From Cenococcum geophilum (lineage: Eukaryota), in assembly GCA_050273025.1 (NCBI GenBank), contig CP158635.1, forward strand, positions 4,712,001 to 4,776,000: DNA of 64,000 bases. Reading direction: 5' to 3'. Positions 1-54,500 of this stretch are shown here, piece after piece (position 1 is the first letter of the stretch; every line of letters begins with the position of its first letter). A program made the position numbers and the translations under genes. The notes below the pieces were generated by a model. It did not search any database, was not told the DNA's origin, and saw only the letters and a list, made by a program, of their open reading frames with translations.

Positions 1-77
1 CCGTTAACTACATTACTAGAAAAGTAAAGATAGATATAGTAGAAGTATATAATTATTTACTTTAAAAAGTTCCAAAA

Positions 78-31297: not shown

Positions 31298-32199
31298 CTA
31301 AGTATAGTAAGGTAGATAGTATATAAACCGTCGCTATTCTTAATAACTAATCTACGCTCCATTCTATTACGAAGTTAGATATCTTTAATAAGCTAAGGGA
31401 GAGCTCCGCGTTCTCCTTTAACAATAAATACTCGGCAAACGTCTTCTATAGTATTATGCTAGATATAGGAGCTATAAAAGTATCTATAGCAGAAAAACCT
31501 TAAGTTTAAGCTCTTTAATAACTTAATACTTCTATCTAGATTAACTAATTAACGGCAGGCTAATATATATATCGGCAAAATATAGTACCCTACCAATGGC
31601 CTCAATGGTTAGTGGTTAACGCAATTGGCGCGTAGTTAAGGGCATTTAGCAACTCGACCGACTAGCCTATGTCGTGTTTTTTTAATACGCAGCCTGCGCG
31701 CAGCCTGCGCGTAACCTACGCGCAACCTACGCGCAACCTACACGCAACTTGTAACTATAATTGTATTTAGAGCTATCTACCTCTTTTATACTAATAGTAT
31801 ATTTTAGATAATAAACAAAGGCTACTTTAAAGCTATTTATAAGGCTAGCAAGGCAAATTATATACACTTCTTTATATAATCCATTATATTATTTTAGACA
31901 ATTTAATATAATATCCCAACTATTTTATAATATATTCTAAAAGCATAAGACCTTTCCTGCTCTCCCTACGACAATAATATACTATAAGTATTTAGCTTTG
32001 CTAGTATAGTATATATATATAGCCAAAAAGTAGCTACTAAGAGTAGCAGATATAGGCCGAAAGAAAGGTAGATTAAGAGCTAGTATATATAATAAAGAAG
32101 CCGCAGTTATCCTATAGAAGAGTATGGAAAGTCCTATACCTAATCTCCTACTAAAAACTCTACCGGCTCCTCTATATTAGAGTCCAGAGTATATATTAT

Positions 32200-33870
32200 A
32201 AACTTTATATACTACTCCTTATTCTTAATTAAATTTAATATTACTTTTCCGTTACTATACTAGCCATAGCTGTCTTCTATAAGGCTATAATACTGCTTAA
32301 ATTATATAAATAACTTATTAGATTTAAACCTTTCTGGCCTAGGCTTGCTGGTTCCTATATTTAGGATAAAGTAGTATACTAGGGCGGAGGATATATATTC
32401 TACTAAATTTAACGAACTTAGCTAGTTCTAAAAGTTAAATTAGCAAATATTATAGTAGTAGTAGGGCCCTAGATTTTCTAGCTTACTCTAGGGCTTTCCC
32501 TTTAAGATAGACTTAGTGGACTAGTCTAGCCTACTTTAGAGCTCTCTATTTAGGATAGACTTAGTAAACTAGTCTAGCCTACTCTAGAGCTCTCCCTTTA
32601 AGATAGACTTAGTAGATTAAATAGTATAGCCTAGCTTACCAATAAATAGCCTAAGTTAATAATCGCGTCAGTTTTGTTGTTGTTAAGGCTTATAAGGAAC
32701 CTCTCTCTTACATTATTACTTAGATCCGCTATAAGGTTATTAAGGTCATCTTTATATAGGTCCTTAATAATTTCTATAGTTAATTAATCCGGTATTAGGC
32801 CCGTAGCATATTTAATAACTACGGGCTAAAGCCGCAGCTAGATTTTAGATTGCCATTTTCTAGATATCTGGTTCTAGCTGCCTAAGAGGTTAGCATAGGC
32901 TTCTATAATGGGTTAGAGAATAATAATAGGTAGTAAAACACCGGATATATACTAACCGCTAATAATAGTGCTATAAAAGTTATCTATTTCCTTAAACCTA
33001 GTTCTATACTCCCTAATTATATAATATATTACTATTAAAATAAAAGTAATAATATTACCGGTAAGCTTTTTAAATATATTATAAGAGTAGGGTAATTAGG
33101 TAAGGCTGTTTCTTCCTCTACCGTAAAATATACTAGCTATGCTAGCAACTATTGCGTTAGAACGGAAGCGGTTATTACTTGGCTATTAACTCTTATTAGC
33201 ATTTTATTAAATAGCACAGGCAAAATACCTTTATATAATCTAGCGCAATAAAATTATAATTAGTTAGTAGTTCCACGATTAGTTTAGGCACGTTGTTAAA
33301 CCCTAGCCTATATACCTCCCTTACAACTATACAAGCCTTTATAATTGTGTAGTTCCTAAAGTTCCCTATTACGTTAAATAGCTATATATAATATTAAGAT
33401 TATTAGTAAATAATTTAATATAATATTTTTAGTATATAGATACCTTATAAGCGGATACCGGGTTAGGAATATAATTAGCTTTTTTTTATACTGCTTTTAG
33501 CTGCTTTAAAATAGCTTCTAACTATGCCTTTTTTATTATATCCTTAATAAGGCCTAGAAAGCGGTCGAACTATAGGTTAATAAGATACCCGTTATAAGTC
33601 CTAGAGTTAGTTACTAGCCTTACTAGTAAAATGGACCTATAAAGCGCAAATATGGGCTTATATCTCTTAGGTAGGTTTTCTTTTATACATCGCCATTATA
33701 ATGTCTAGAGGTACTCTTTTCTTGCCTATATTGCGGTAGTTAGGTTAAAATCGTTATAGTCTAACTCGTCCTTACTTTCCCTAGTACTATTTAGGTCCCC
33801 TTTAGATTAAACACTAGATTAGTATACTCTATATTAGAGGGAGGTTACTTATTTTATGGACGAAGCTATA
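32200..33870 (-). pseudogene. RIP-degraded ORF of unknown function in X (cargo 1)
   Basis: Long minus-strand frame starting MASSM-like at ~33870 with stops mostly RIP-type; acidic N-terminal stretch; 48-bp tandem repeat (x3) at ~32480-32620. No family recognised; boundaries approximate. Confidence 0.35.
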
Positions 33871-34199
33871 TTAGGGTTTAGGTAAATACGGCTTACTAGA
33901 GAGAATATAAAGCTAAATATTGGTTATTTACGCAATAAGGTTTAGATTAGGCGCGTAGGAGAGTATTTTAAACTAGTATGCAATTGTTTATGCGGTAAGG
34001 TACGGATTGGGCGCGTAGGAGAGTATTTTAAACTAATACGCAATCGTTAAGAGCCGGAGGTATATTGCGAAGATGCTGCTTTTTATAGCGGTGGGCGGTT
34101 AGATAGTAAAGAGAGTGTTTTATTTACTAGGGCTCGCCAAGTGCTAAATAGTAGAGGAGACTATTAAGTATTGCAGTTAGACTCTGGTTATGTATAAAG

Positions 34200-36760
34200 G
34201 TATAACCTACCTTAACTAAAAGATTGGGACTTCGCGTTTTTAACTAAGCTGGTTCTGCTGCTAAATCATTAACAGATTTAGTAGATTTATTAATATTTAG
34301 TTGCTATTATTTCGTAGAAGAAGCAGGTGTAGACTTGCAGTCACTATCCTTATTATTAGAGATTACCCTTTTTAGCCGGAGGCGGCTATATATATTCTAT
34401 ATATTGTTAGCTAGCTTAATATATTATATATAACGTTAATAGGGTCTATTGCATGCCTACTCCTTTTTATACCTAAATATAACTAGACCAGAGTCGCTAT
34501 TTTTATTATTAAATATTACCCTTTTAAGCCAGAGGCGGCCATATATATTCTATATATTGTTAGCCAGCTTAATATATTATATTTAACATTAACGGGGTCT
34601 ATTACGTGCCTACTCTTTTCCACGCCTAGATATAACTAGACTAGAGTTATAATATTGCTTATTCTAGCTGGGTTCCACGTGCTCGTTTTAGCTAGGTTCT
34701 ATATACTCGTCCTAGCTAGGTTCTATATACTTATTCTCTATTAGCGCGTTCTTCTTTCTGTTAGCTAGGACATAGGCAACTCCTAGCAGTAGGCTAGGTA
34801 AAGACGTAAGGTTAATTATACTAGTTGTCCTTATTTCCTTATCCTACGTTAACTTAAAGTAGGGTTCTTGCTACTAGTTTAAGTATTCAATAACGCGTTT
34901 TTATGTTTACCTACTATAGTAACACTCCTATATTTGCCTAGTTAGTAGAAGGTATAGCTTATAGCTAGAATAGGTTACCTTATAGCTGTTTCTATAATGT
35001 TTAGGGCGTATATAGATTAACAACCTAAAAGAATATATACTAGTATAGTATATATTGGACTAATGGTAGTATTAGTAGGAGTATTATTGCTATAGTGCTT
35101 GCAAATAACTTAAATAGGGGTGCATTTATTATAATTAGCTGCTAGTTCTAACCGGTTACGGTTAAGCCATAACCGTAACTTATTAACTCGCGTTAAGTTA
35201 ATAGTTAAGAAAACATTATTATATAGTTAAAGATTATCTAATACTATTTGCTATTATACGCGAAACTGTTTTATTTTATTAGTATATCCCTTAGTAGATA
35301 CGGTATGCGTGTATAAAAGGTTAAACGTTAATCCTAGCAACAAAAGCAGTAGGCTAGTAAGGCTTGTGTTTGAATTTAACAGGGAGGTACCTTATTAAAC
35401 CACTTTACCTACCTAGGGCGCTGGCTTTTAGATCCTGTACCTTATTCCAGTCTACCTATACTAGGTTTAATACCCGTCTCACACTTAAAGCAAAGCTTAT
35501 CCACCTTATCTATATAGCTCGCCAGTGTAGATAATGCTAGGGTAGGTATAGGCGGCATATAGGACAGTAATTACACTTTTACACAGTTATATCGCTATAT
35601 TCTACACCCTTATATAACACCTAGTATTTCTACTATAAATATCCAACGTTATTCTTCCACGTCGTTAACCCCGCCAGCCTATAGTAAGCCCAACCTATCC
35701 CCTATACATATATCGCAACAGCAATTAAATTTAGTAGAATAGTAAGGAAAGCGTAAGTATAGATATAAGGATTGGGTGTCAGATACTAAGAGCGAGCCGG
35801 GAATAGTATTAATATATATTACCCCAACAAGTTTACTAAAAAGAATGGGTATAAACCTTAGGCTTTATTGTCTAATCCCCTTAGGCGTTTTAAGAATGCC
35901 GGATAAGTTATAAGAATATCTTAGGTTATATTATTCTAAGACTCCCTCACCTAATAGTACACTAAGGGGCTCTATTAAGCCGTTTACCTTTATATATAGT
36001 AATCTATTAAACTAGTAAGTATTCCGGATAAAGTAGTGGCTTTAAGGCGCATAATCCATGCTGCGGTTATAGTTGCCTTCGCCTTTTTTATTACGGGTTA
36101 AGGCGTAGAGTAAGGGCTCTTTTTTAACTAGGAGAGGTTTTTTGGGATAGCTATAGGTTAAGTATCGCCTTAGTATTAACCTGTTTACTAGTTCTACCTA
36201 TTCTTATATATATAGAGTGCGAGTTATCTAGTAAAGGCAAGGGTACGGAAATAGAGGGTAAGTAATTGTATTATTCTTGGCTGGCAGCGCAGACTGTAAA
36301 TACGAGTTAGTAATACTAGCTTAACTTTAAGTAGTAACCTACTTATTCTTCTTTATTCTATTATAAATAAAAACCTATCTATTTCTTATAGAAATATATC
36401 CTTAACTATACTGCGCTATTTCTCTTTATTTATAAGCTGAATTCGTCCTCTAGCTATCTTATTGCTAATATAGTAGCAAAGCGTTTCGCTTTTAAGGTTA
36501 AAGTTAATATCCTAGCCTAGTATGTCTATAAATGTATTAAAGCTTAGATTATTAACGTATATATCTAGAGCATTATTCTTACTAGTCGCTAGCTTTTAGG
36601 TTAGGATAATTATTAACTCTTCGTTAGCTGCCCGCCGGATTAGTATTATTATTATTCTATATAACCTTAATATTCCCTCCTGCCTTATTGCCTTTAGTAT
36701 GCCGGCCGGTAGATAATACGCGATGGCGGAGTGTGGGAGTACTAGGTTGCCTATTATAAT
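34200..36760 (-). pseudogene. RIP-degraded ORF of unknown function in X (cargo 2) with a Cys/His-rich central region
   Basis: Minus-strand frame MGNLVLPHSAIAYY... through DLSFxTFxDILGxDIxF, then CxKCxYCPIC (~35550-35590) and CTPIxVICKH (~35095-35125). A 153-bp tandem duplication at ~34351-34650. Boundaries approximate. Confidence 0.4.
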
Positions 36761-37399
36761 TTGCCTAGTAGGAGCCGTTTTGTTTATTTAACGCGTCGCG
36801 TTATGGCTATAGCGCTAGGCAAGCTATTTAATATATTTAGTATGTAGGTTTTTAGGTAAACCTAGAAACACAGATAGGAATTCATTAGAGATTTTATTTA
36901 ATATTTGCCGTATTTATACCTTACTTATAAGGGAGCGTAGTAGCTATTTAAGGAGCCCGCGCGTCGACATTTTAATTTTAACATCATAGTAGATCGTATT
37001 GTATTATTCGTTTATAAGCCCTAGATCTCGCTTAAGAGTGTCTTTAGTATTATAGCTTAGGTCTATTATTAGTGCTATAATTCTAGAAGCGTTAGGGGAG
37101 GTATAGTAGGAAAGACGTCTTAATTACGCGCTAAGACCGATGTATAGAATTATATAGATAGGTATATTGTTTAGTTATTATATAAAACAATTGGTTAAAT
37201 GTCTTATAAGAAATAAATAAGCGTATTAGCAAACACTTCTTCACCCGCTACACCACCCAGACTTATAACCTCCTATCCCTTTTACATCTCCGTCTATAAG
37301 CTTAATTCAGCACCCAGATTTGTTAATACTTTTTTTTTATATATTTTTTATATATTCATTATATTATACTATATATAATAATGCGCATACAGCCTCTAG

Positions 37400-38600
37400 G
37401 CTATAGTGCTATAGTTCTATATACATAAATCCTTTCTAGGCAGCTTAATATATACTAGTAACTATATTTACCAATACTTTAAGACGCCTAGTCAGTCCAT
37501 AACTAGTAAAGCCTAGTTAGCACAATTAGAGGTCCCAACCTCCACTAAAATACTTAATATCCCTAATAAGGGCTAGAATATCATTAGCGAAAATAAAGAT
37601 ATTCTACTGTAAGTTAATAAGATCTTAGGTCTATATAGCTCGATAAAGGAGTATCTAAGCTCTTAATACAATCTTTTAAGAGAAGATATAATTAAACCGT
37701 TAAGAGAGGTAGTAGGTTAAATTAGAGCAGACCCTTTTTAGTTTACTAGAATCTAGATATAGTAATAGAGTCAGTATATATAAATAGGTAAGCATGCTAT
37801 AATTCTAAAGCAGTCATCCCCTAATATCTGCAAGGTCTATACTAACTCAGTAATATTTTCACCTTAAGGGCTAGTAATCTGCGTGGCGTTCTCACTTAGG
37901 AGAGTAAGGAAGATAATCTATTAGAATTAGTTAAAAAGACTAATCGCCGGGTCTCTAGTTGCTTTAACTCCTAAGATTAATAATTTTCAAACAAAATATA
38001 TACTTATAATAGTGGCGGCAAGACTATTAGCCGTATTAGAACAGAATCCCCTAGAGGTTAACTTATTCTTTAAGACCTAAAGATATTAAGATTGACTTAT
38101 CCGTATTATAGACAATAGTTAAGGAACAAACTAGATTTTACGAAGTTAGTTACTATACTATATTGGCATTATAAAAGCTAATAAGAGAGCCGTAAGTGTG
38201 TAATGTTTTTTAAATAAGAAGATATCTAACCACCAATAGATTCCCGTTATTAGAATACCTTGTTTAAGTTTAATAAAATATTAAAGCACTATAATATGTT
38301 ATAAATAAGCCTTATACGGATCTTAGTTTAATTATAGCTATTAAGGATACTTCCTTATTTAAGAATATTTACATTCTTAAAGACTGGTTAGATATAACTA
38401 CTATAGGGCTTAATAAATCTCAAGCCACTATACTAAAACGAGTTCTTATAAAGCGTCTTGCAATAATCTAAAGACCTCTAGGCACTAGAAAAACGTAGCT
38501 TTAAAGGCATTACTCAGCAATATAACAATAGGAGATCCCCCTGTTATTGTTATATGTTATATAAACCATACACTAGACTAGTTCTTTAGGTATATTGCTT
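37400..38600 (+). pseudogene. Intron-containing 5' fragment of an Hrr1/SAD-3/ZNFX1-family SF1 (UPF1-like) RNA helicase, RIP-mutated
   Basis: YNLLREDxIxPLREVV (~37670-37715); VAFSLRRV..W..SKRLIAGSLVALTP (~37885-37972); AARxLxxLEQNPxEVxLF; EP|FPLSEHLV across intron 38192-38239; a second intron at 37788-37834; Walker A LAIIQGPPGTGKT (~38457-38496, RIP-reverted); motif Ia DPPVIVxCYTNHALDQF (~38533-38585). Ends before motif II. Confidence 0.85.
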
Positions 38601-38769
38601 AAAGTAATATATACTTTATAAAATTTCCTAGTACTTCTAACCGTCTTAATACTATCGCTTATACGGATAGACGATATTACACTATATTAGGCGCCAGGGC
38701 CGTAGAAGTAGGAAGAAGAGAAAGCGTTAGGGCTCCCTCTTTTTATATCTTATATTTTATTTTTTTATA

Positions 38770-39140
38770 TTATCTCATATTGTCCTACCATTGTCCTGCC
38801 ATTGTGTCATATTGTCCTATATTATCCCATATTATCCTACCATTATATTACATTGTCCTGCTATTATATCACATTGTCCTACTATTATATCACATTGTCC
38901 TGCCATTGTGTTACATTGTCCTGCCATTATATTATATTGTCCTGCCATTATATCATATTGTCCTATTATCGCCCTACCATTATATTATATTGTCCTGACA
39001 TTATCCTACTATTGTCCTACTATTGTATCATATTGTCCTGTCATTGTCCTACCATTATGTTATATTATTCTGTTATTATCCTGCCATTATATTATATTAT
39101 CCTATCATTGTCTTATATTGTCCTGCTATTGTCTTAGTAC
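38770..39140. repeat. ~21-bp minisatellite (ATTGTCCTGCCATTATATCAC-like)
   Basis: Visible periodicity; source of spurious ORFs 38780-39210. Confidence 0.9.
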
Positions 39141-40214
39141 TGCTATATACTTTTTACCATTTACTAAGATTATAGTTATAGGTATTTATCGGCCAGGATC
39201 CGGGCAGTAACTCTTGGCAGTAATTTTACTACCTAAATCTCTTATAGATTAATCGATTGGCGTAGAGCCGTTACATTATAGTAAAGCTATATCTAAGCAA
39301 TCTATATCGTAATCCTTGGCATAATATTACACATAGAAATATTTAATCGTTAGATTTAGGAAGGTGTTTATATTTTAATTAAATTTATAAAACTATAACT
39401 AAGGGCCTTTACAGCGCAGTGGTATGGTAAGTTCTATAATCGCTTTAGTTTAGGGTTGCTCAGTCACTATAGGAAAGTCGTAATACTTAGCATAGTGTTA
39501 AACTTAAGGTACCTCGCCACTGTAGTGGTAGAGACATAGCAGATTAACTACTTACTAAAATATAGCGCCCCCGTTGCTGTAGTAGCCACTGCAGTAACAG
39601 AGATACCCCATATTTATAAATTTAGATTCTATATACGGTATAGCTTGCGAATTTAACACGCTTGCCGATCTAGAGGAGCTTTTAGATTAGAAAGTCGCTA
39701 GATTAACCGAATAATCGCGTTAGAATTAGATTTGAGCTTTAGCTTAGATATATTCTACGGCCTTTAAATTTAATCTAAAGTCGCAACCAAATATTCCCTA
39801 AGATTTAATACAGGGATCTCTCCCTAAGGATCTGGTTTGATCGTAAGGTTTAGAAAGGGGTTATAATTTAGTTAAATTTATAAAATCACATTCTAAAGTC
39901 CTTATAGCGTAGTGGTATAGTGCGTTCTACCTCTTACTATAATTTAGAGCTAGCCTAACGTAATTAAAACTCGACGTAGAAGAGCCGATATGCTTAGTAT
40001 ATAGTGCTGAGATTTCGTTAAATATATAACTTTAGGCGTTGCAGGATACGTATAAAAATACGAGCTCAATTTAGAGCCTTACTAACGCCTAATTTAATAG
40101 AAAACGACCTTCTTTTTTAATATTTTTAATATTTTTAATGCGCGATAAGTGGGAATTAAACCTGCCACGCCTGGGAGTTAAATACGCGACGTCCAATTGC
40201 TCAATCTGGCTAGG

Positions 40215-40450
40215 AGGCTCAGCGGCAATATAATAGGGCTCGATGACATAATAAGGCTCAACAGCGATACAATAAGACTCGGCAATATGATGAGACTTAA
40301 TAATATAATGAGGCTCGGCAACGTAATAAGGCTTAGCGATATAATAAGACTTAACAATGCAATAAGGCTCGGCAACGTAATAAAGCTTAGCGGTAATGCA
40401 ATAAAACTTAATAATATAATAAGTCTTAGCAACGTAATAAGGCTCAGGGC
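40215..40450. repeat. 18/21-bp minisatellite (AATAAGGCTCGGCAACGT-like)
   Basis: Visible periodicity; source of spurious ORFs 40089-40460. Confidence 0.9.
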
Positions 40451-41529
40451 CGGGCAATAAGGGGAAGATTTAAGGTTGCTTGGTTACTAATACCTAATAG
40501 CAAAATCTAACGGTATAGTACTACTATTGAGGTATTCTAATACGGGTAGGTTATATAAAGGTTTCGTCCGTAATATATCTAACATATCCCAAAAGTCTAC
40601 CTTTTGCTTATCTTTAAGGTTAAATTTCTAGCCTGTAATAAATTAAATGTTATAGTTAGTAAGAGCATAATAAATAACAGCATATTTTGCCCTGTTGTTC
40701 TTAAAACCGTTAAATACAAAGTAGTAGGTAGTCTATTAACTTATATCTATTAGTGCCGGCTAATAAAGTGCCTTTAAAACATACTAATATTAATAATAGC
40801 CCTTTTATTTTACAGCATAATAAGCTTAATAGCAACAGGGTTTCGGTCCTTATAATTAAGCATATTTATCTAGCGGAGCCAGGTTTACCAATTATTCTAG
40901 TCAGCATTATGTTATAGGTTAATTTAATATCTTATACCAATAAAAAAAGGCAGGAGGCAGATTAAATAAAATAATTAGGATACGCTTTTCTTTGCCATTA
41001 GGGATTTCGTATAGACGTCATATAGTGTATAGGTAGGAGCTGGTAGTCGTTAAGACGTTATAGGCAGTAGTGAAAGTTTTACACGGGATAGTAAGATCTC
41101 GAAAACCACTACTAACGGTTCCCCCTTATAGCAGACAACTACGTATATGCGCTATAACTGTGCAATTAGTAGACAAAAGCGGTAGTTATAAACGTCAGTT
41201 TGTCTGTTCTAATGCCGTCTTACTTTTTATAACAATTTAAAATATAGAGGGAGCTTTAGTTACAGGATGATCCTCTTACGTACTAATTAGGCTTTTAGAA
41301 TAATAAAGATGGCATATATATATAGTCTGTTAGTAGAAAGGATACACCTTAATAAGAATTATTAATATATATTAGGAACGAGAGTTAGTAGGGTTATAGG
41401 CTAGATTACTTAATAGGTATTAAGGTAGTTAGTAGCCGGAGTAATATTAATCTAAACAAAATTTAAACTTTTTAAGGTTTAGTTAGTTATAAGGTAGTTA
41501 ATACTAAGATAATATATTACAAAATATTA

Positions 41530-44500
41530 AATAGTTGTATATTGTCTATATATATATACATTATACTAAGACATACTCTTATTATAGGGGGTCGCTGCTC
41601 TAACTGCACTAGCTATACTATTTCCATTATATCATCATTAGCCTACTAAGTAGGTTGGGCTTTAAATACTTCATAGAACTTATTAATCGTTATCCTTTTA
41701 GTTATTATACGCCTCGCTAATATAACCATATTAATTAGGTTCCACTTATCCGTACTATACGTTATTAACGCAGTAACTACTAGCGCTAGCTGTCTAGATC
41801 TAGCAGCTTAGCCGAATACTTACACCTCTATATTTACTATTATCGCCAGTTTAAGCAAATGGACTCTATACATAGAGACTAAATTTAAACCCTCTCCTCT
41901 AACTCTTTAGTTAATAATAAGAAACTAGACTATGTTATTCTAGTAAGGACCGCCTATTAGAATACGAAACGCTTTATAGATATCCTCCTGGTCTTTTAGG
42001 GATATCCTAAACTCTATCTAGCAAATAGTCGAATATTTAGACTGGCCGAGCCTTTTATAGAAATACTATATTATATTATTAGTAACAGTTTACCACTAGT
42101 CTAATAGCTAACTTATAAGGCGTAATAGCGTATATACCGCTAGTTCGTAACTGCTAAACAGTAGTCTCTTATTAGGATTCCTTTTAAGTACTTTATTAAT
42201 GTATTTTATAATTCCATTTAGTTTCCCAGAGTTAGTAATTATACTTTAATTCTTCTAAAGTGGATTCTTATCTAAAGGTTTATCCTATTTTTCACTACGG
42301 AACTTATTAACTATCTACCTCGGCTTTATTCTAACTTTTGTTTTATCCTTCTACTACGCATCCTACCACTTATCTCCTACCTTAGCCAGGCTTAGAAAGA
42401 TAGTAAAAATTTTTAATAAGCGACCGGCTCCCTCTAGAAATTAATCCATATTAAAGACGGGTTCTTCTCCTTTTCTTTCTTTAGCTTTCTAGTGTCTAAA
42501 AGCTTTATTTAGCTGTTTAAAAGCTTTTAAAGATGCTCCACGCCAGAGCTTCTTAATATACGGTTTAAATATTAAATTATTTATTATATAGCAGTCTTGG
42601 TAGATAACTAGTAGTAGCTTATTAATTACTCTCCTATTAAACCATTGGTCTTCCCCTATCCTGCGTATAATTAAGACCTTTATAATTAAAAAGGAGCATT
42701 CTTTAAAGCCTATAATAACCTTATTTAAAAAAGAAGAGTAATTAGCTACTCCTAGCTTTTTATATTTAATTAACGCTTTAATATTATAATTATTAATTAA
42801 TTTTACATTTGGGGAATCCGTCTAATTAGGGGCCCTAAAAATTTCTAAGGCGGGAATTAGACTTATAAAACCTTCGCTAGTTAGCGTACTGGAAGTAAAC
42901 ACTACTAAAGGTTAAGAGGTGTAGTAGGTTATTTTACTATTGCTGTCCTTATAAGACTGGCCCAGGCGTTAAAAGTAAGGAAATACTACTTAATCATTAT
43001 ATACTTGTTTAGCGATTTTTATTAAATAACCTGTCTCTAACCTGTCTATATAGAACTTATCGGTAAAAATCCCACTAACGATATAACGAGGACCACCGTC
43101 TCTATGGAGATTAAAAATAGTTTTATACTGTTCCTAAGCGGTTTAGGTTATTACCTAAGTTTATAAGGTTATAATTATAAGATACAAAGCCAATCTTAGA
43201 TCTATTTTCCACTAAACCACTTTACCTTCTCCTTTATATTTTATAGGTTTAAGAATATCCCTATCTTTATCCGTAAAATTGTACTTCTTTATACTAGACC
43301 TAATAAAAGCCGTATAGCGCACGCGGACTTATAGTTTACCTTTAGGAATAAAATTATTTAGTTCTAAGGTCTTAAACCATAATTTAACGTCTTCAACCGC
43401 TTAGGGTAGTAGATTCTGTCTAGTAATGTATATAGTTAGTCCTACTAGCCGGTTAAGAAATTTTCTAGCAATACTTCCCTTAATACAACAGCACTGTAGC
43501 ATGCCATCCATTTAACTTAGGCATTAGGCGTTAGGCGGCTGCGGGTATTTATTTATACTAGGGGTAAGATAAAGACTTTCATCTCTACCTTTTTAATTTT
43601 TCCAATTAAGCCAGTTAAGGTTAATCTTGGTTATTAATACGCCAGTATACCAGATTAAAAGCATTTAAAGTATCTTACCTAAACCTATTATATCCGCAAA
43701 AAAGGTCCCACTTAGGGTTATACAATTAAAAAGAGTATAGGTAACACTAAGCAGCTAATATATTTATATAGCTTTACCCTTTTTTATACCGTATAAGTGG
43801 AAGGTTACGTCTTAAAGAGTGTTGCAAATAGTTAACGGAAACGAGAGGAACTATAGCGCCTTTACCCATAATATTGGGTTGATATATACTTCTCGCACGT
43901 CCTTTAGGTAATTAACTTCCTAATTAACCTCCTTAATTTTATCCTTATGTTTATCTTCCGGTTCCTTATTAGTCGAAATAGGGTTAATTAAGGCGTTAAA
44001 GTGGCGGCGCTCCTATATATGGTTAAGATTAATTTCCCTAATACAAATTAGGTTAGGGTTATTATTTATATCCTTAAATAATATATCGATAAACATTTCG
44101 CGATTAAACTTTAGCTATTTATTATACCATCCTTTCATTTCATCCCATAGCATTATCTTAAATGTTTATACTTTGTCTAGATCCATGCCTTTTAAAAGCT
44201 CTAATTTATCTAGTAGGGGCTAGTCTTTACTACTACGGGTCCAGCTATAAGCAGTTTTAATTATAGCTAGCCATATAGCTAATAATGCATTAGTAGGTAT
44301 AGGTGGCGTAGACTTTAGGGTTAATATAGGCTTTAGATTTAACTGCTTAGATATAAGTGGCGTGGACTTTAGGGTTAACTACTTATAACTACTTTAACCT
44401 AGAACAGGTATGTCTGTTCTTCTCCTAGTTAGCACCGGTCGTGCAATATTAAAGTTAGAGTTAGACTTAGAATTACTCTTATTAAATCTTGTACCTATAA

Positions 44501-45407
44501 ACGTACGTTAGATAACTCTATATAATATTATACAATCTTATAAATTATAAAGTCTCTTACGCTTTATAATCCGATTGGGATCTTTAACTCTAATTATAAT
44601 TATATTAAGTCCGGCCTTCTTTATAAAAAGCACTATAAATACTAGGTTTATATAGTTAAGAATTAGTGTACTAGTAGTTAGATCTACTATAGTCCAGCCA
44701 TCCCTATATTTATCCGCCAAGAAGTTTTCACTTATCGCGGCCTATAGCTTGTTATATCCATAGTAATATATATTAATTTTCTCTGAAGAATCAGATAATA
44801 GATGCTTATGCTCAGTTTTTAATGCGAATCCGTATAGAATGGGGGCCCTAGTAAATGGCGTTTTATCTAGGTAACTATATACAGCAAAGCTCATTTTATA
44901 GAATAGTATAGGTATAGTATTTGGCTATTATAGGGCTTTAATAGACAGATTACCGAGTACCTAGGTAGCCTTAGAGGTTGCCCTTAATCTAAATAAGTTA
45001 ATAGACTGCTCTCTAGAAGACAAGGCGCCACGCTTTTAAATAGCATTAGTTATTATAACCTCCACGCCTCTACGTCTATTGGTCATTACGTATTACTATA
45101 TAGATTTTTTGGCGGCAATAGCGAAAGCTTTAAACTCTAATAGTAGATTGGATCTCTTAAACACGTGCCCATACTTAGTATCGAGAAGGTCAAAGACTAT
45201 ACGCTTAACTCCATTTTGTATAGGTCTAGACGTTAGCAACCTACCGCTAAACGCTTTATTAATTTCGCTAGTACAGTATTAGAGGATTTCGCTATATGTT
45301 TTTTCGTTAATTATAAGTCCTTACTACAGCTTTAGACCACTTATTTGCGATAAGTTCTTATTAGTTATAGTAGTTAAGTACTAACTAGATTCTAAATATA
45401 GCGCCAT
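41530..45407 (-). pseudogene. SNF2-family (SF2) helicase/ATPase cargo gene of P, RIP-inactivated
   Basis: Minus strand: motif I GTFFADxMGLGK(T)L (~43670-43710); degenerate motif II/III region (GHLIKN-like ~43015-43035, FLTxTPG ~42960-42985); motif V GEGLNL..V(H)LLEP (~41850-41898); motif VI QVFG(R)AARSGQ (~41790-41823). Candidate ATG at 45407. Confidence 0.8.
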
Positions 45408-45889
45408 TATTATAGTTAGGGACCCTATATATTTATAAGCGGGTAAAAGCTTAATATAGAATAGTATAGAGTAACTTATAAAGATAGTAGAGCGGATAAT
45501 ATATTAGATAATTAGCAATAATATAACAAAATAATCCTAACAGTTATAATAAGAAGGTGTGCTAATAGTGTTAACTTAAGATAATAGCGGATGCTAATAA
45601 GAGCGATTTAAAAGTGATGCGAGAAATAGAACGGAATATAAGTCTTAATATAAGAAGTAAGATAAGATACAAGCTTTAATATAGGCAGTAGAATAAAATA
45701 TAAGACTTAGAGTAAAAAACGGAACAAAAGGTGCGTAGCAAAATAAGATATAAGATTTGCGCTACTAACTAAGTAAATAACAATAAAAGAGCTAATAATT
45801 CTATTCTTTATATTATAACTAGTTAGTAAAGCAGCTCTAGAGAGGTAGGGAAATAAGTTTAGAACAATCTAAGATATTAAAAAATGTTT

Positions 45890-46183
45890 AAGATTGTACG
45901 AAAAAGTAAAATATAATATGGTATTTTATTCCGTAAGTGTAAGGTAAGGTAAAATGCATAGTAAAGAGAGGTAGGGGGATAATCCAAGACATTATAAAAG
46001 GTCCAAGATTGTATAAAAAAAAGTGAAATATAATATAGTATTTTATCCTACAAGTGCAAGATAAGGTAAAGTGCATAGTAAAAAGAGGTAGGGGGATAAT
46101 CTAAGACATTATAAAAAGTCTAAGATTATATAAAATAAAGTAAAATATAATATGGTATTTTATCCCATAAGCGTAAGATAAGG
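45890..46183. repeat. ~120-bp tandem repeat (about 2.5 copies) in the divergent intergenic region of P
   Basis: AAGATTGTA…GGTAGGGGGATAATC…CATTATAAAA unit recurs at ~45890, ~46005 and ~46122. Confidence 0.85.
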
Positions 46184-46647
46184 CTTTAGGATACCCTTTT
46201 ACCTAAAGTACAACCCATTTTTAAGCTATATCACTAATAAAGCAACTTTTTTTTAGGTAAGCTGTTACGTCTACTACACAAGTAACCTAAAACTAGTATC
46301 CTAGATCCTACTTATAGCTACTACACCTCATATTAAAGATATTCGCTAGACTTATTTATATATAGGTCCCGTAGTCCAAATTACATATTAAGCTATCTAC
46401 AACACAGCTATTGTCACTCTAGCCCTATAATACCGTACTCTCATTTATGCGCCTTTTTTTTCTATTTCCTGCCATTATCCGCTTAATCTTTTAAACTTCC
46501 ATAGCCGCCTAAACCAATACTACAGCCTCTTTGTCTTCAAAAACACAACTATATTAAGCTTAGCTCAGCCTTAATTTCTCTTTAAAAATACGGCTACGTT
46601 AAGCTTACCTCGGCCTTAATTTCTCTAAACACACACTACCTAGAAAT

Positions 46648-47443
46648 ATATCCCGCCTTACACGACTACCATAAGCTCTACCTATAATATAGCGTCTAGT
46701 GCCCTAGCGCAGAGCAGGCTCTCTTAAAAGCCGCATTATAATACCTTCTAGAGACTAAACACCTAAAGCTTCTTTAGCCGCTATAAATAAGGGAGATGCC
46801 AATATATAGATCGACAGTGGTATACTAGGTGGAGATAGCCCTAATCTTCGCGAGCTAGGGTAGGATATTAAGGTCAAGCTAGCCGATCTATAGACTAACC
46901 TAAATAACCCATTCTTTTCTGCTAAATCATTCGAAGAGCTCTAACTATATTTTAGCTCTCTGCACCCTAGTAGTATATAGGCTCGTGCTAATATATCTAT
47001 TTAACAGGAAACTAGAGGTGTTAAAAGGAATTCTAAAAATAAACTTTTAAAAGCTATTAAAGATAAGCAGTTAGCCTACGAGACACGGGCTTTCTATTTA
47101 GTTACTTCGCGGGCTTTAAATCATCTATATTATTACTAATACCCATTATCCAGCCTAACCCTTTAGCGTTACCCTAATAACAAATATAAGACTTCCAGGC
47201 GGCAGCTTAAGTTAAATATTAGTTAGAACTCTATATACCTAAGACCGGATGTTATAGTTCTAAGTGCTAACTTATTCAGTTATCTTAACTTAACTAGCAC
47301 TACCTTTAATCCTCCCTTTTTTCTTACTATGGCTTATATAGAAACAACGGAATTATAGGTCCGAATAGCTAATATTATCAGGCTCTGTAACATTAATAGT
47401 AAATAATATCTTCGCTATAGCTATAGTCCTATAGCCATCGCCT
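46648..47443 (+). pseudogene. Accessory ORF relic (~260 codons) upstream of the Plavaka transposase
   Basis: A single frame (SRLTRLP…IDSGILGGDSPNLRELG…) whose stops are RIP-type TAA/TAG; no family recognised. Confidence 0.4.
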
Positions 47444-47814
47444 AAGAATACTGTATATTGTTATTTAGACAAATAAAGGTTTTTTAGGTACTATTAAGTC
47501 TTTAGTTTATAGTTTAGCTACTTTAGACTCTTTTAAGTCCTTAAACTTGGTGTTAAGCTCAGTATTAAGCTAGTCACACTTATACTTTAGCGTCTAGTTT
47601 AGTTGCCTTAGACTCTTAAGTCCTTAAACTTAGTATTAAGCTAGTTATACTTGCGCTTTAACATAACTAGTTCTAGCGAGAAAATAAGAGGTATACTCTT
47701 AGTAGCTATAAAGCTAAGCCACTTAGATTAAATACTAGCAATTAACCGTTAGTACTATAACACGCACTCTTTACACCTAGAAATAATACCACATTGTTTA
47801 ATATATAATTAGCG

Positions 47815-50800
47815 ATAATATAGCGGAGCTATCTATAGTGTTTTTATACCCCCAAGAGTTACAGCGGCCTTTACCGACACCTACGGTGCTATAAAAGGCG
47901 GCTACCTAGCCACTAACACGTCTACAAAAAAACACGTAAAAAGAGATACAACACTTACACGTTTATTACGGCCCAACTACTCATAATTCGCGATTAATTC
48001 TACCACTCTAACTAGTTAGATAACACGCAATTACAACTAGATGGTATAAATACGGATACTAATAAGTACGCTCTAGTAGCGGTAGAATATGAGTAGAATG
48101 CCCACCTAGTGCCTCTATACAGTATACTACATTAAAAAAGCGTCCTATTGTTATTATTATTACTTAAAGTAAAGACATTTAAAGCAACTAAGAATATAAA
48201 GGCAGGTAAACCAATTTCATGCAAGACCAATAATAATATATAGTAAGTTAACTAGATAATTTTAGATATTACTATATAATAACACAATAATAGCTAAAGT
48301 ATACTATACAATCCTTTTTATTCAGAGTTTAATTACGCCTTTTTAATATAGCTGTACCGCATTTGCTGCATAAAGGGAGACGTTAACGCACTACTTAAAG
48401 ACACCCGCCTTAGCCCACTTTATAGCCTACTTAGCTTTTAATCTATAAATTAATAGGAGGAACTAATTACCGCTATTTTATTTAGCATATAAGATAAACA
48501 ATAGCTCCAATTAGAGTATAAGATAGAATTAAATATTAAAGGCTCTAAGCAGAGGAAATACTATATTCTTTACTAGGATATTATAAATATAATTACCTTT
48601 CTAATTAGCTATTGACCCTTTAAAGATACACTAGCATATACACTAAAGAGACTCTATAATACCGACAACCACTAAGTCTATAATAAGCTATACAGCGGTA
48701 ACTAGTAGTAGGAGATATAAGGCAAGGTTCCTAGCGGTGCTATAGTAGTTCCTATACTTATAGCAGTTAATAAGACCTAGCTAATAATACACTATGGCGA
48801 TAAATCGGCCTGGCCGGTATATCTTACTATTAGTAATCTTAACCAACAAGTTTAACGCCAACAAACATCCCCTATAAATATTCTTATCGGTTTTATACCA
48901 GTTATTAAAGAAAAGGATAATAATATAAAAAGTAAAGCATATTATAAGGCGATAAGAACTATACTTAAATATAAGTCCTACTTTAGTATTCTAACGCTAT
49001 ATTCTATAAACTAAAATATAATAGCAATTAAGCATCTTACAGAAAGCGGCATAGACCTTTAATATGCGGATAATTTTATGCGATAATGTTATCTAATTAT
49101 ATATAGAATAATAGCAGACTATAAAGAACAAGTGCTGCTTATAGGTATTAAAAGCCAACAGCACTGCACTATATGCTAGGTCCCCCCTTTAAAGCGTAAA
49201 AACTTAACCAAGAAATAATACCCACTATACACCCATAAGGAGACGAGAAGATAAATTAAACGCCAGCAACTAGAGAACATTCTTCTATCCTTAAATAACT
49301 AGGTACACCCAGTAAAATATTTCGCGTAGCACCATCGCCTATTTAACATCTATAAGGGTATAATAGTAGATGTTCTATATTAGCTTCTAAAGGGTATCAT
49401 TATATGACTTATTAAATGGGTACGGAAACTGGTAGACGATGTCATCTAGCTAAAAAGAAAGAGAAGAGGGATAAAGACAACTATAACAAATATATCTGCG
49501 GAGGCTTAGCTTAATTAGCGTTTTAAACAAATCCTGGCTTTTATAGGGCTAAAACGGTTTAATAATCTATTATTTAGTAAAGTTACTTAATAGACAGGTA
49601 ATAAACAAAAAGCTATAGTTCGTCAACTTATTACTATACTAGCCCTACTACTATCGTCTAGGGAACTATATACTATACATTTTACAAAAGCCGTATACAA
49701 CTTCGTTATTATAGCTTAGTATTATACCTATAATAAGGAGACACTATAATATATACACTACGCCCTATATTAAATTAATATACTTAAAGGCGTATTTTAA
49801 AGTTTCCGTTTAAAGGCAAAGGATTCTAATACGGGCCATTTTAATATACTAAAATTCCATGCCCTTATATATTTTAAGGAAAATATCCGCCTATACAGAT
49901 GCGTAAATAGGTACTACACTAGCGTAAATAGCGAAGCTAGACACCGTTACATTATTAAGGCGTTTTATAACTTAATAAATAAACGGGATTTGCTATCTCA
50001 AATCTACTCTTATAATTTAAGACGGGTAGTAGTACTAGTAATAGAAAACGAAATAGCTTTCACAAATAGTAATTCTGTACTATAGTCTTCCCAGCGTCTA
50101 GAGGTATAGGTTACTTAACTAATATAGCATTTAGCAGTTATAAAGCTTTAGTGGCCTTTAAAAGATATAAATAGGGCAACAGATCTTATCTAGAGGCGTC
50201 TTAAGTTAAAGACGTGGCTTTATATATCTTATATAGTAAACTGCTACGAAATCCCAGGGTTTCTAGACGGTATTACAGTATTTATCTAAAAGTGTAGGCA
50301 AAAACTACAAGGTAAACGTGCCTAGAACTTTAATATAGACCAGAAAGAGAAGGATCCTTTATAGGTTAAGCGCCTACTTATTAAAATATATCCATCTATC
50401 CGCTATTAAAAACGAGACGGAAAAAATACAACCAACCTTAAGGCCTAAATTAGTGAGGTAGTACGTTGCACACTAGATTGGCAATATTCTAACTAGTAAA
50501 GGCGTAATTATATATAGGTTTAAGAGTATATAGATAACGACGACCGTATTAGAAAGGGCCGCATACCGTTAGGTGGAAGACTTATAGGCTAGCTTCAGCT
50601 AATTGTTACTATTCTAGATATTAAAAGGTTAGATAAGTACGGTGTATACGTATAATATACTAGAGCTATAGTAGAGCTACTTTAGCCATTAAATCATAGA
50701 CTGCCGCATCTAATATACAGCATGGTTAAGGTAAAAAGGTAGCCGCGCTTAAGTGTAAATACTAGGCAAGTACTTGGAGGTGGTCGCTTTTATTTAATGC

Positions 50801-50970
50801 CATCTATTCTATAAAGCGCGCATATTGTTCCAGCCACTACTTCTTATCCAGATTTATACTATATCAATAATTATATTAATTAGGACCAATATAATACTCT
50901 ATACTCAGACAACTTTCTTAAAAAAGAAACCCGCATCGCGTTATTATATAAAAGCTAGGATAAATAGTAA
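47815..50970 (+). pseudogene. Plavaka transposase, RIP-inactivated
   Basis: N-terminal C2H2-like CxxC…LYRHLRCH (~47830-47893); VPILxAxDKT…GDKSAWPVYLTI(G)NL (~48748-48840); LIGFIP; IADYxEQVLLxGIK…HCTICxVP (~49111-49185); VDVLHQLLKG (~49365-49395); HFNIPKFHAL (~49837-49866); HIVPA…YYINNYIxWDQYNTLY (~50820-50902). Confidence 0.9.
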
Positions 50971-50994
50971 AAGTAGCTAAGCTAGTATAGAACC

Positions 50995-51500
50995 TATATA
51001 AGACTATATAGGACTATATAAGATTGTATAAGATTATATAAGATTATATAAGATTATATAAGATTATATAAAATTATTTTAATCCTAATATATATTATAA
51101 GCTAGCATACTATAGGCTAAGAAAATAATAAAAATTCATTTGCGTAATTAGCATACAACTTTAAAATAATATATTACATTACCTTAATTGTATGTCAAGG
51201 AATATGCAGTTAGCTTTTAAAGTTATTAAGTTAGTTAACTGCGTATTATTTAAATTTTAAGTTGGTTAATTACATGTTAAGGAATATGCAGTTAGCTTTT
51301 AAAGTTGTTAAGTAGGTTAACTACGTATTATTTAACTTTTAAATATATTAAGTTGGTTAATTGCGTATTAAATTAGTTAAGTTACATATTAAGTTAGTTA
51401 ATTGCGTATTAAGTTGGTTAAGTTATATATTAAGTTAGTCAATTGCGTATTAAGTTAGTTAATTACGTGTCGAGTTAGTTAAATTGCATGTCAATTACGC
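50995..51500. repeat. Subterminal repeats of P: 10-bp AAGATTATAT array (~50995-51080) and ~20-bp AAGTTAGTTAATTGCGTATT array (~51170-51500)
   Basis: Directly visible tandem units just inside the right TIR, as expected for CMC elements. Confidence 0.85.
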
Positions 51501-54500
51501 GAAACGCGAAAAATAAAGTCTACTTAAATCTTATCCTGTAAATATTTTCCCAATGCAATACGTTTTAGCAAGGGTACTATAATCTCTCTTAGTATAATTA
51601 GGGTCTAAACCCCCTTAGGGTATATCACCTTTTATGTCGTTTCTATAAATACCCCGTTTCTATTTTATATTAAAGATATAAATAAATTAGGCGTTAAGCT
51701 TAATAACCTTAAGGATATACTTATTTAGGGAGATAATTAGGTGCCCGTTATACGCAAGTAGGGTCACCCTTAGTTGCTCCTTTATTAACTAAAAAAGAGT
51801 ATTACTTAAAGCTACCTAACTAAGTTAGAGTTACGTCAACTATACCGTCGTTTTAGCCACCTATCTATTTATTAATTGCTTAAAGTTCTTTAGCAAGTAG
51901 GCTATAAAGTTAAGGTTAAGGCAATTAAGCATCTTATAAAGTACTATTATTACTACTAAATAAACCAGAAGTCCCCTAGCCGATTTAAGTTTACCCTTAA
52001 AGATAACTACGACTTTAACTTCTATATTATCGTTAACGTTATATATCTTAGCGGCAAGCTAGTACTCTAAGTTATTAACTTCTTAACCTTTTTTTAAGCC
52101 GTACGATTCTTAAAGGATATATTAGCTAGGAACGCATAGGATACCCTTTAATTATACTAGATTAATGTCTACCTAGGACCCCCTAATTAAATTATCTATA
52201 ACGTAGGAAAGAACTTCTTATCTATAGAGTTTTGATAATAGATAAAGGCAATAGCAATTAAGGTTAAGGAAGTTCCTATTAAGGTATATAATAGCGTCGG
52301 AAAAGTAGAGCAATATTATACGTTATTACGCCGCGTATATAAGATTATCTCTTTAAAACTAGAGGATGCTAGCAAAGAACTTACCTTATAAATAGCTATT
52401 AAAGCTATTAATAATTCCGCTGGCCTAGATGGACTTATACCTATATTACTAGTCTTTAGCGCCTACCCTTAAATAACTAACAATTCTCTACTATCTCCCT
52501 CCGTCGTGCAATAAGCTAAGGCTATTCGTAAGGCAATAAAGGAGGTGTAATGTCTCTACGCTATAGGCTAGGTTAATAATATACTAGGAATAAGAAATGG
52601 CCTAAATACTTTAACTACGCTTAATCTACCACTTTAGTCTAAGGTACGCGTATAGCGTAAAAAGGGAGGATAGTTAGGCCTATATTAACTTATTATAATT
52701 AATAGTTAAACTTATACTATTTAAATGCCTTATGGACCCACTTAATTCTATTTAACTATTATTAAGCCTTACTATAAAGATAACAGTTCTAAGCCTTTAT
52801 AAGATGCTATAGAAGATACCCTAAAGGAGAGCTACAATTAACGTGCTTTAGAAGGCGACCATAATTCTAATATAATTATAGTAGATAAGCCGCAACTATA
52901 ACGCGGTAGAGGTCGCCTAAAGGGATTACGAAATTACTAACATCTTATTAATTTTAAAAAGCAATTAATTGCTGCCATTAAGAATAGAGTTAAGCTATTA
53001 ATGGCCTTTATAACAGCTAAGAAAAAGGCTAACTTTAAACTTGTAAAATAGCTTTAAAAGGAAGGTTGTATTATAACTTTAGAAGCTCCTTTCTAAGTAT
53101 CTAATAAGTAGGAGATTTATAGCCTTATCGCAAGAGAAGTCTTTAAATTTAAGAAGTATGACCCTACTAAATTCGATAGAGTCCGCATCTTTAAGTTAAG
53201 AATAGTTAATAAGATTAAGGGCAAAGCTACTAACGCCCTATTTAAGAAATTAAGGCTTATTATCTAAGGCTACAACGACAATAGTAAGGAGGTAATTCTT
53301 ATATAATCTCCCACGATTTAACGAGCTAGTTAGCGAGTTATTATTATACTAGCTCCCTCCCTAATAAAGAATAGAATAGCGGTCTACCTATAAGATATTA
53401 CTTAGGCCTATACCTAATTAGAGACGCACCTTTAGCGCTTAATATTAGCATACCTTCTAGAGCAAATTCGCTACTAGTATCCTAAGGATACGATTATAGT
53501 TATACTTAAGCTATTATATAGAATCGCAGAGGTAGGAACTTACTAGTGGGCTACCTATAGCAAGCACTATAAAGAGAAGCTTTTAATAACTACTTCTATA
53601 TTCGATCCCTGCTTCCTTATTATAACTATAGAAACTCTATTTAGAATTGTTAGCATATAAACTAATAATATAATTATCTTAGGAGACAACTAATTCTTAG
53701 CTCTTAAAGAGGATAAGCTAGTAAAGGTAAATCTTATAGTAAAGCTAAAGGAAAAGCTTAATTTAACAATACTATTACTCTTTAATAGATGCATCCTCTC
53801 CCTAAATAAGGATTCTATTACTTTACGCTAGAAGGGTTAAGGTAAGAAGATTAACGTTATTAACATTAATTCCCTAAAGCAAGGATATGTGGAGTAACGC
53901 GCTTGCGGAGCTTATATTGCTTCTATCTATTAACCTAAGGCTTTATTTAATCTCTTTATTGCCGCCTAATACTAGGAACTAATTAAGGATAATATTTTTA
54001 CCCTAAATAAACGTCTTTCCTAGTAAATAAACTATCTTAACTAGGGACTACTCTATATACCTATTAATCTTCCTACCGCTAAGCTCTTTATATTTATTAA
54101 TAGATCGTTTATAAATAATAAAGATTTTAGCTCCTAGTTACGGTATAAGATTATTATTATAAACAAATTTACTAGAGAGAATGACTTTATAATTTATGGC
54201 AATCTTATCTATTAGAGCTTAACTAAGAGTAAGCGCATTACCCGAAGTATTTTAGCGTTAGAGATATATAAAATAGTTGGCGGAGTTAATATAGTAATTA
54301 TAATTAGAACTACCCTAAAGATAATTATAGATCGGCTCGAACTTCCCGTTATCCCTATAATTATATATACCGACTTATATTCCCTCTATAAGTATTTAGT
54401 TAAGCTTAGTACTATAAAGGAAAAGCGTCTTATAATCGATATTATGGCACTTTAGCAATCCTATAAGCGTTAAGAACTCTTTAAGATTTAATGGATTAAT

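Follow-up and report, generated by a model that had tools for sequence, protein, structure and literature searches.

A 64,000-nucleotide stretch of the Cenococcum geophilum genome (contig CP158635.1, positions 4,712,001 to 4,776,000, forward strand) was analysed and is called the window here, with positions counted from its first letter. It contains a DNA transposon, named element X, that inserted into a repeated host element (Table 1). X belongs to the Plavaka lineage and carries, in addition to the remains of its transposase, a piece of a host gene for an Hrr1/ZNFX1-type helicase. The window is AT-rich from 4 to 64 kb (GC 0.24-0.40). In 30 of 30 two-kb segments between 4001 and 64000 the TpA/ApT ratio is 1.33-1.95 and the (CpA+TpG)/(ApC+GpT) ratio is 0.22-0.71. 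Judged by the usual index thresholds, this composition is the signature of repeat-induced point mutation (RIP), which the initial annotation of this DNA had already recognized in the helicase segment.

The boundaries of X were determined by comparing the window with itself by BLAST after collapsing the letters to a purine/pyrimidine code, in which RIP transitions vanish. The sequence directly left of the element (31296-31569) recurs at 14804-15077 and at 12137-12410 with 98% identity, and the sequence at its right end (51553-54700) recurs at 15073-18220 with 99.6% identity. Both flanks thus match one continuous stretch of about 14804-18220, so that the segment from 31570 to about 51555 was inserted cleanly, as one unit, into a repeated element. 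The alignment of the junctions agrees. The initial annotation had described the split element as a Copia. The clean split stands, and the Copia identity could not be confirmed: translations of the three forward frames of 28000-31569 and 51556-55400 match no Pfam family at E ≤ 0.01, the best frame alone matches none at E ≤ 10, and a PDB search with the interrupted element returned no matches. An integrase-like stretch followed by a reverse transcriptase-like stretch can be seen, by eye only, in the frame of 51558.

The element is closed by 14-nt inverted ends that read CATCGG[C/G]AAAATAT before RIP. Over the first 16 positions the two ends have 11 identical bases, and 13 that match when transitions are allowed. 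Among 200,000 random pairs of positions in the window, 0.17% reach 11 identities and 1.1% reach 13 transition-tolerant matches. The RIP-tolerant end motif occurs twice in the 64 kb, precisely at the two junctions of X, and the terminal inverted repeats proposed in the initial annotation are thereby borne out. The ends are flanked by TA and CA; at uninterrupted paralogous sites the dinucleotides read TG and TA. A CG could have given rise to each of the four by C>T or G>A changes, and duplications of 0-2 bp are indistinguishable. The 2-bp target-site duplication that had also been proposed is compatible with these flanks, if it was CG before RIP, and is plausible, not proven.

X is a Plavaka-lineage DNA transposon related to CACTA/EnSpm elements. 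Six-frame Pfam scans, in which stop codons were written as the residue X, covered both strands of the element except the forward strand of 36400-36800. They gave two real matches, the Plavaka transposase (PF18759) and the ZNFX1 domain (PF25396). The transposase domain lies on the forward strand at 48526-49422 (E = 4.1e-42, 145 bits against a cut-off of 26.3) and covers profile positions 33-325 of 325. Its nearest named relatives, from Suillus, are only 24-28% identical. A 629-aa metagenome protein (P0331), named 'Plavaka transposase' by JGI and representing a cluster of eight members on contigs of up to 21 kb, aligns without gaps to 49078-50964. The raw identity is 69%, and 99.5% of the positions are explicable by C>T and G>A changes alone. 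Unmutated frames of the family of X therefore exist in nature. The ends fit this assignment as well. Plavaka is described as grouping with EnSpm/CACTA, Mirage, Chapaev and Transib, and PlavakaB elements as having 5'-CATCA..TGATG-3' ends and duplications of 2-3 bp (PMC12730594). The ends of X, now TATCG..CAATG and CATCG..CGATG before RIP, agree with PlavakaB except that the fifth base differs from the published consensus. Before the C>T and G>A changes they also show the 5'-CA..TG-3' form of Plavaka terminal repeats.

The second Pfam match belongs to the captured gene piece. We used phmmer to search one frame of 37700-38650 against 1.8 billion representative sequences and obtained 105 matches at E ≤ 1e-3, 31 of them at E ≤ 1e-10, to proteins of about 1100-1300 aa. 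The extent of the piece was tested by tblastn with 45 matches longer than 850 aa and with a profile built from 39 relatives of 1000-1400 aa. Only profile positions 31-400 of 1167 were matched in the window, at 37460-38656, and the remaining two thirds of the helicase are absent from it by tblastn (E < 0.01) and by the profile (E ≤ 10, filters off). The initial annotation had placed the 5' half of such a gene at about 37400-38600. The helicase identification holds, and the piece is a 5' third. It spans about 1.27 kb of native gene sequence, beginning 6 nt upstream of the ATG and ending near residue 392 of 1162. It lies 5.6 kb inside X and has the same orientation as the transposase.

The limits of the piece were set by comparison with native DNA. 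Three metagenome loci were used, among them L001 (a 202-kb contig) and L002 (a 25-kb contig). Both carry the full-length native gene (L001 10073-13764, L002 7668-11368), which covers residues 1-1162 of the Glonium stellatum protein P0156 at 78% identity. The DNA of X matches them only at 37209-37332 and 37472-38602, with 80% identity over 1146 columns, and shares nothing else with the two loci. Beyond the 5' limit, 6 nt upstream of the start codon, the sequences are unrelated. At the 3' side homology stops at about 38605, after ...HVAQ and just past motif Ia, so that the fragment holds only motifs I and Ia of the superfamily 1 helicase core. The motifs listed in the initial annotation are present in RIP-mutated form (LLRED, KRLIAGSLVALTP, RPLGTRKT and CYINHTLD).

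The piece keeps two canonical introns. Around intron 1 the window matches open reading frames (ORFs) from native DNA (P0315 and others) codon by codon, and tblastn of P0156 breaks at the corresponding place in L001 and L002. Intron 2 fills a gap relative to P0156 whose bounds coincide exactly with splice signals. The introns indicate capture at the DNA level, in agreement with the initial annotation. Exon 1 is split by a nested insertion flanked by a 9-bp duplication (TAATACTTT at 37324-37332 and CAATACTTT at 37472-37480), and native L002 7788-7796 is matched on both sides of it. A duplication of this length would presumably suit a Mutator-like element. The coding frame is destroyed: it changes near 37750, 38072 and 38495, at least three times, and about 22 stops interrupt about 400 codons. 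The helicase piece and the transposase are both dead in this copy.

Relatives of the captured gene are Dothideomycete proteins that combine PF25396 with PF13086 and PF13087 and occur mostly once per species (best 120 of 984 matches). Several sources (JGI, NCBI) name them 'helicase required for RNAi-mediated heterochromatin assembly 1'. The best solved structure for the family of the native gene is human ZNFX1 (9q9z, E = 2.4e-127). By Pfam domains, relatives and PDB match, the donor falls inside the Hrr1/ZNFX1-like helicase family, where the initial annotation had put it; its orthology to Hrr1 and SAD-3 is read from source annotations only. Hrr1, of the Schizosaccharomyces pombe RNA-dependent RNA polymerase complex (RDRC), and SAD-3, of MSUD (meiotic silencing by unpaired DNA) in Neurospora, are described as fungal homologues of ZNFX-1/ZNFX1 (PMC3759863, bioRxiv 10.1101/220111). 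Most eukaryotes are described as having a single orthologue of this family (bioRxiv 10.1101/220111).

The divergence of the piece from its relatives is dominated by RIP. We scored, for each codon, whether the residue of a relative could give the observed codon by C>T or G>A changes alone. Against P0156 the piece has 55.1% raw and 85.6% RIP-compatible identity over 374 residues, and a reverse-direction control reaches 58%. The RIP-compatible identity is about 72% for Mytilinidiales, about 66% for Pleosporales and 92-95% for short ORFs from metagenome DNA. The Glonium stellatum protein is the nearest named one, and on this ground X would come from a probable member of the Gloniaceae. At the DNA level, mismatches to L001 and L002 comprise 191-193 changes in the RIP direction versus 22-24 others, so about 90% are C>T or G>A. 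For L002 the comparison gives 191 changes from native C>T/G>A, 11 reverse transitions, 11 transversions and 16 gap columns. In a three-way alignment of 1250 columns, 204 of the changes private to the window are of RIP type and 26 are not. By site, the RIP-type changes affect 113 of 177 CpA, 68 of 124 CpG, 12 of 135 CpC and 11 of 167 CpT. The preference for CpA and CpG is unlike the RIP pattern of Neurospora, which is dominated by CpA.

Since the mismatches are mostly C>T and G>A, the identity of the piece to the native gene, 80% now, was about 98% before RIP. The native alleles L001 and L002 are 97.6% identical to each other over the whole gene. At the 23 sites at which they differ, the window agrees with L001 eight times, with L002 eight times and with neither once, and six sites are confounded by RIP. 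The pre-RIP piece would thus have been about as distant from each allele as the alleles are from each other. This closeness suggests that the captured gene was the helicase gene of the lineage itself and that the capture was recent. It also bears on the reverse direction, in which the N-terminal module was originally a transposon gene that the host acquired from the element. We consider this extremely improbable. Some DNA transposons do encode accessory proteins, but nothing specific to X speaks for this direction. The relatives counted above are full-length proteins of one architecture, the fragment ends inside the helicase core and keeps host introns, and, RIP aside, the near identity is to the native alleles of one lineage only.

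The helicase fragment is a constant part of the X family. Some part of 37000-46999 is present in 20 DNA runs from nine studies, including several strains and a root metagenome. We aligned the contigs of three runs from three strains (X1, X5 and X9) to the element at ≥80% likeness, which gave 28,154, 61,404 and 23,736 aligned contigs, respectively. The summed word depth is flat over 28 inner bins of the element, apart from the bin with the nested insertion in X1, which has about six times the depth of its neighbours. The nested insertion looks like a very abundant short element of the miniature inverted-repeat (MITE) type. In X1 the two helicase bins have depths of 15.9k and 15.0k and the four transposase bins 13.9-17.7k. 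The values are 13.5k and 10.4k versus 13.8-17.2k in X5, and 1.19k and 1.00k versus 1.07-1.28k in X9. Long, presumably single-copy contigs have depths of about 40 (X1), 19 (X5) and 6.5 (X9). This would put the X family at roughly hundreds of copy-equivalents, as an order of magnitude. Variant sites within the helicase piece are represented by 20-52 distinct contigs, like those elsewhere in X, and the variant places in X1 comprise 2874 transitions and 55 transversions.

A 60-aa metagenome protein found on three contigs (P0077) matches the native gene over residues 1-31 and the window over residues 1-58. It therefore runs over the 3' breakpoint into sequence specific to X. Two further metagenome proteins, P0014 and P0224, have RIP-like substitutions in common with the window. 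These data bear on the possibility that the piece is a RIP-mutated pseudogene or segmental duplicate lying by chance in a repeat-rich region. RIP-degraded regions are mosaics, no capture-specific ends are visible, and about 15 kb of X have no recognizable domains in the Pfam scans, all of which would suit such an origin. However, the piece lies deep within an insertion that has defined ends, and in three strains it is covered as deeply as the transposase, where a single pseudogene would be covered far less. The equal depth, the course of P0077 and the native loci, which are otherwise unlike X, identify the piece as cargo of the family, and a local pseudogene is very unlikely. The sequence is thus multi-copy, as initially proposed, and is not confined to the copy in the window.

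The native gene itself is spared. Its captured part has TpA/ApT ratios of 0.59-0.60 and (CpA+TpG)/(ApC+GpT) ratios of 1.25-1.30, like the rest of the gene. We considered RIP damage to the native gene via the shared 1.27 kb, and these equal indices rule it out. The host gene thus shares about 1.3 kb with apparent hundreds of RIP-targeted repeats yet has no RIP signature, which bears on the sparing of essential genes.

Table 1. Features of element X and its flanks, in window coordinates.
Feature	Position	Strand	Basis
Element X, RIP-degraded Plavaka-type (CACTA/EnSpm-related) DNA transposon, 19,986 bp	31570..51555	+	Interruption, ends, transposase, flat contig depth
Interrupted repeated host element	left flank 31296..31569, right flank 51556-54700		Purine/pyrimidine self-BLAST
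Candidate 2-bp target-site duplication, left TA, right CA	31568..31569, 51556-51557		Junction alignment
Left terminal inverted repeat TATCGGCAAAATAT, initial C changed to T by RIP	31570..31583	+	End comparison
Right terminal inverted repeat, reverse complement CATTGGGAAAATAT	51542..51555	-	End comparison
Short GC-rich repeats near left end	~31690-31745		Repeat search, self-comparison
Weak DUF6532-like stretch, uncertain (E 0.0083, 16.5 bits vs cut-off 24)	32948..33206	-	Pfam
Captured 5' third of host Hrr1/ZNFX1-type helicase gene, including introns and nested insertion	37207..38605	+	DNA homology to L001/L002, protein matches
Former start codon ATG, now ATA by G>A	37213..37215	+	RIP-aware alignment to Glonium stellatum N-terminus and native ORFs; DNA alignment
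Nested 139-bp insertion in helicase exon 1	37333..37471		Alignment to L002
Retained intron 1, 47 nt, GTAAGC..CTAAT..AAG	37788..37834	+	Native-DNA ORFs run in and terminate
Remnant of the N-terminal ZNFX1 domain, PF25396 (E 1.3e-12, 48.1 bits vs cut-off 27)	~37832..38078	+	Pfam
Retained intron 2, 48 nt, GTAAGT..CTAAC..AG, phase 2	38192..38239	+	16-codon gap vs P0156, splice signals exactly at its bounds
Walker A/motif I remnant RPLGTRKT, from GPPGTGKT	38472..38495	+	Alignment
21-bp minisatellite directly downstream of capture breakpoint	38750..39150		Repeat search, self-comparison
Plavaka transposase reading-frame remnant, 814 codons, 51 stops, no frameshift	48526..50967	+	Pfam, P0331 alignment, stop count
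10-bp repeats	50985-51084		Repeat search, self-comparison
Subterminal 41/82-bp direct repeats near right end	51184..51494		Repeat search, self-comparison

Other features of X are repetitive or weakly matched. Tandem arrays with periods of 21, 18, 117, 10 and 41/82 bp lie at 38750-39150, 40214-40447, 45861-46184 and 50985-51494, and the 21-bp array starts about 150 bp past the helicase capture breakpoint. The arrays at the right end resemble subterminal repeats of CACTA-type elements. The DUF6532-like stretch lies in the left arm, antisense to the transposase, and might be what is left of a second gene of the element. A match to LbR_Ice_bind (26.6 bits against a cut-off of 30) was rejected as a minisatellite artefact. 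Rfam gave no matches in 31000-52000.

The surroundings of X are mostly repeats. Large copies of the element that X split lie at three or more places in the window (15073-18220, 18700-21648 and 51553-54700), accompanied by further shared blocks, and 10496-22100, 51553-55360 and 62385-63590 form a nest of the same few repeat families. A 27-bp minisatellite of about 29 units (30407-31203) lies in the interrupted host element directly left of X and yields non-gene open frames of 167-282 aa on both strands. The window has 14 stop-to-stop frames of at least 110 aa, five of them within 1-3.1 kb and nine in or beside simple repeats. Positions 1-3100 are the sole stretch with normal composition and long open frames (e.g., 1196-2743, 515 aa). 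They presumably represent host genes bordering the repeat block.

We conclude that X is probably an inactivated copy of a high-copy Dothideomycete Plavaka family with a transduplicated piece of a silencing gene, and that this piece is now a passenger without present activity. Starting from the boundaries, the transposase family, the origin and limits of the fragment, its introns, its multi-copy state, the mutation spectrum and the intact native gene elsewhere, we infer the order of events, the mechanism of capture and the neutrality of the piece as follows. Before the burst, transduplication at the DNA level would have supplied an ancestor of the family with about 1.27 kb from the single Hrr1/SAD-3/ZNFX1-type gene of the host. 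The element would then have multiplied with the helicase piece aboard. Later, all or most copies may have been struck by RIP-like C>T and G>A changes, mainly at CpA and CpG. In the present copy the piece and the transposase are both inactive, and the piece would be a passenger.

Several points weigh against this interpretation. Random breakage would be unlikely to place the capture limit as little as 6 nt upstream of the start codon. The kept ORF start, together with the orientation of the transposase, hints at a translatable or transcribable unit and not at random scrap. The cargo comes from a silencing pathway, as few genes do. Less-mutated copies occur in metagenomes (P0014, P0077 and P0331), and another part of X has less-mutated relatives that are represented among RNA reads, so the family may still be alive in places. 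Finally, summed contig depth is not copy number, and we used only its order of magnitude and its flatness.

An alternative takes up these points. While the family was active, the piece could have weakened RNA silencing in the host and aided a burst to hundreds of copies until RIP set in. Two routes are conceivable. Small RNAs from the piece may have acted against the native Hrr1/SAD-3-like mRNA, including in meiosis if the piece was unpaired, thereby 'silencing the silencer'. Alternatively, the piece may have encoded a truncated decoy protein composed of the N-terminal ZNFX1 domain, motifs I and Ia and a short transposon-derived tail. The origin of the cargo in the ZNFX1/Hrr1-like family, its capture from just before the ATG in the orientation of the transposase, the pre-RIP identity to the native gene and the copy number of a very successful family are consistent with such a role. 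So are the known functions of the homologues, since Hrr1 is described as part of RDRC and SAD-3 as needed for MSUD (PMC3759863, bioRxiv 10.1101/220111), and unpaired MSUD genes as suppressing MSUD (PMC7263685). Precedents have been described in rice CACTA elements with miR820 (PMC3459959) and in fungal transposons bearing TET/JBP genes (PMC12730594).

For the copy in the window both routes are closed. The piece has 0 of 1266 21-mers in common with L001 and 20 of 1266 with L002, and exact identity extends over at most 20 and 38 nt, respectively. Repeat search and self-comparison of the window revealed no inverted match to 37207-38605, and there is thus no inverted duplicate that could form a hairpin. 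With its frame destroyed, its low 21-mer sharing and no inverted duplicate, the piece could neither encode a decoy nor template small RNAs against the native gene. Compared with the small-RNA source known from rice, it is likewise a piece of a host silencing gene, and it lacks the hairpin or inverted duplication and, in this copy, the pairing with its target. The initial annotation had named strong divergence combined with absent expression as speaking against cross-silencing. The divergence is found for the copy in the window.

No RNA runs are listed for 37000-46999. Of 2535 reads aligned in one RNA run (X21), 2490 overlap X only in part, and no read reaches 99% likeness. This run says little about expression because most reads from copies free of mutations would fall below the 80% threshold. 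Its few reads in the helicase region show G at positions where the window reads A (3 of 3 at 37845, 5 of 5 at 37907), as expected of native mRNA. Well over a thousand reads match only about 40-50 nt at 41073-41127, a segment that has no Pfam or Rfam match. By eye, their overhangs are a G-richer, less RIP-mutated version of the flanks in the window. This part of X thus seems to have transcribed relatives with fewer mutations.

Other points speak against the putative counter-defence role. A hairpin-forming inverted copy is missing from the window. Capture of gene fragments by CACTA-type elements is common and mostly neutral. The family was disabled by RIP, not by RNA interference (RNAi), and RIP is not known to need this helicase. 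MSUD is not known in this lineage, and the closest genus described so far has been reported to be putatively asexual (PMC12910237). We therefore regard a role in counter-defence as close to nil for the copy in the window and as unlikely for the active past of the family, though not negligibly so. More specifically, the 5' third of an Hrr1/SAD-3-type gene, cut precisely at the start codon, might have been used against the host as a decoy or small-RNA template and have enabled a burst that RIP, acting independently of RNAi, brought to an end, and less-mutated copies might still act so. We give this extended version slightly less credence still. If true, rice CACTA/miR820 would have its first counterpart in a fungus. 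Should the fragment be no more than a passenger, as we favour, X is a case of ordinary transduplication with an eye-catching donor.

Capture of host gene fragments is a general property of several transposon groups. Pack-MULEs, CACTA elements and Helitrons transduplicate fragments of mostly arbitrary genes. X resembles them in that DNA was captured with its introns and then amplified with the element. It differs in its donor, a core RNA-silencing factor, and in the position of the 5' limit at the start codon.

The Neurospora MSUD system offers a different parallel, in which an extra or unpaired silencing gene could turn the pathway on itself; the donor of X is of the SAD-3/Hrr1 family by annotation (PMC7263685, PMC3759863). 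The cases described there are experimental deletions and ectopic copies, not a natural transposon, and the present copies are about 20% diverged from the native gene.

A literature survey, judged partly by title or abstract, turned up no earlier description of an RNAi gene fragment in a fungal transposon. The main text of the paper on transposable elements and RIP in C. geophilum mentions no CACTA, Plavaka, EnSpm, helicase or RNAi; its supplements may list the family.

The closest relatives of X by transposase are the Plavaka and PlavakaB elements of the CMCT clade. Plavaka and other fungal DNA transposons are described as carrying TET/JBP genes, for which an escape from methylation-based silencing has been proposed (PMC12730594). 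X has in common with this group PF18759, CATC...GATG termini, large size and cargo of a proposed anti-silencing kind, and its candidate duplication is compatible with the short 2-3 bp target-site duplications of PlavakaB. In contrast, the families described there are from Agaricomycotina and carry whole accessory genes, whereas X is a Dothideomycete element with a truncated fragment of a host gene.

The closest analogue is found in rice. CACTA elements there are reported to carry miR820, which derives from OsDRM2, represses it and co-evolves with it, an established case of a transposon targeting its silencer (PMC3459959). In both systems an EnSpm/CACTA-related transposon holds a piece of a host silencing gene with exon and intron sequence, in copies that rise with the element. 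The rice piece forms a stem-loop that is processed to a miRNA, and target cleavage and co-evolution have been demonstrated (PMC3459959). X, in contrast, has a single sense copy of 1.27 kb without a hairpin, and it differs in its fungal host, its RNAi-helicase donor and its RIP-mutated copies. Anti-silencing cargo is known from few cases, such as rice miR820 and the TET/JBP-bearing fungal elements. The X family adds a well-documented natural fungal case with an intact donor gene for comparison, in which the counter-defence question is directly testable. Transduplication by CACTA-related elements and, in rice, a silencing gene as donor were thus known already; the fungus, the Plavaka lineage, the RNAi-helicase donor and the start-codon-precise 1.27-kb piece in apparent hundreds of RIP-mutated copies are new.

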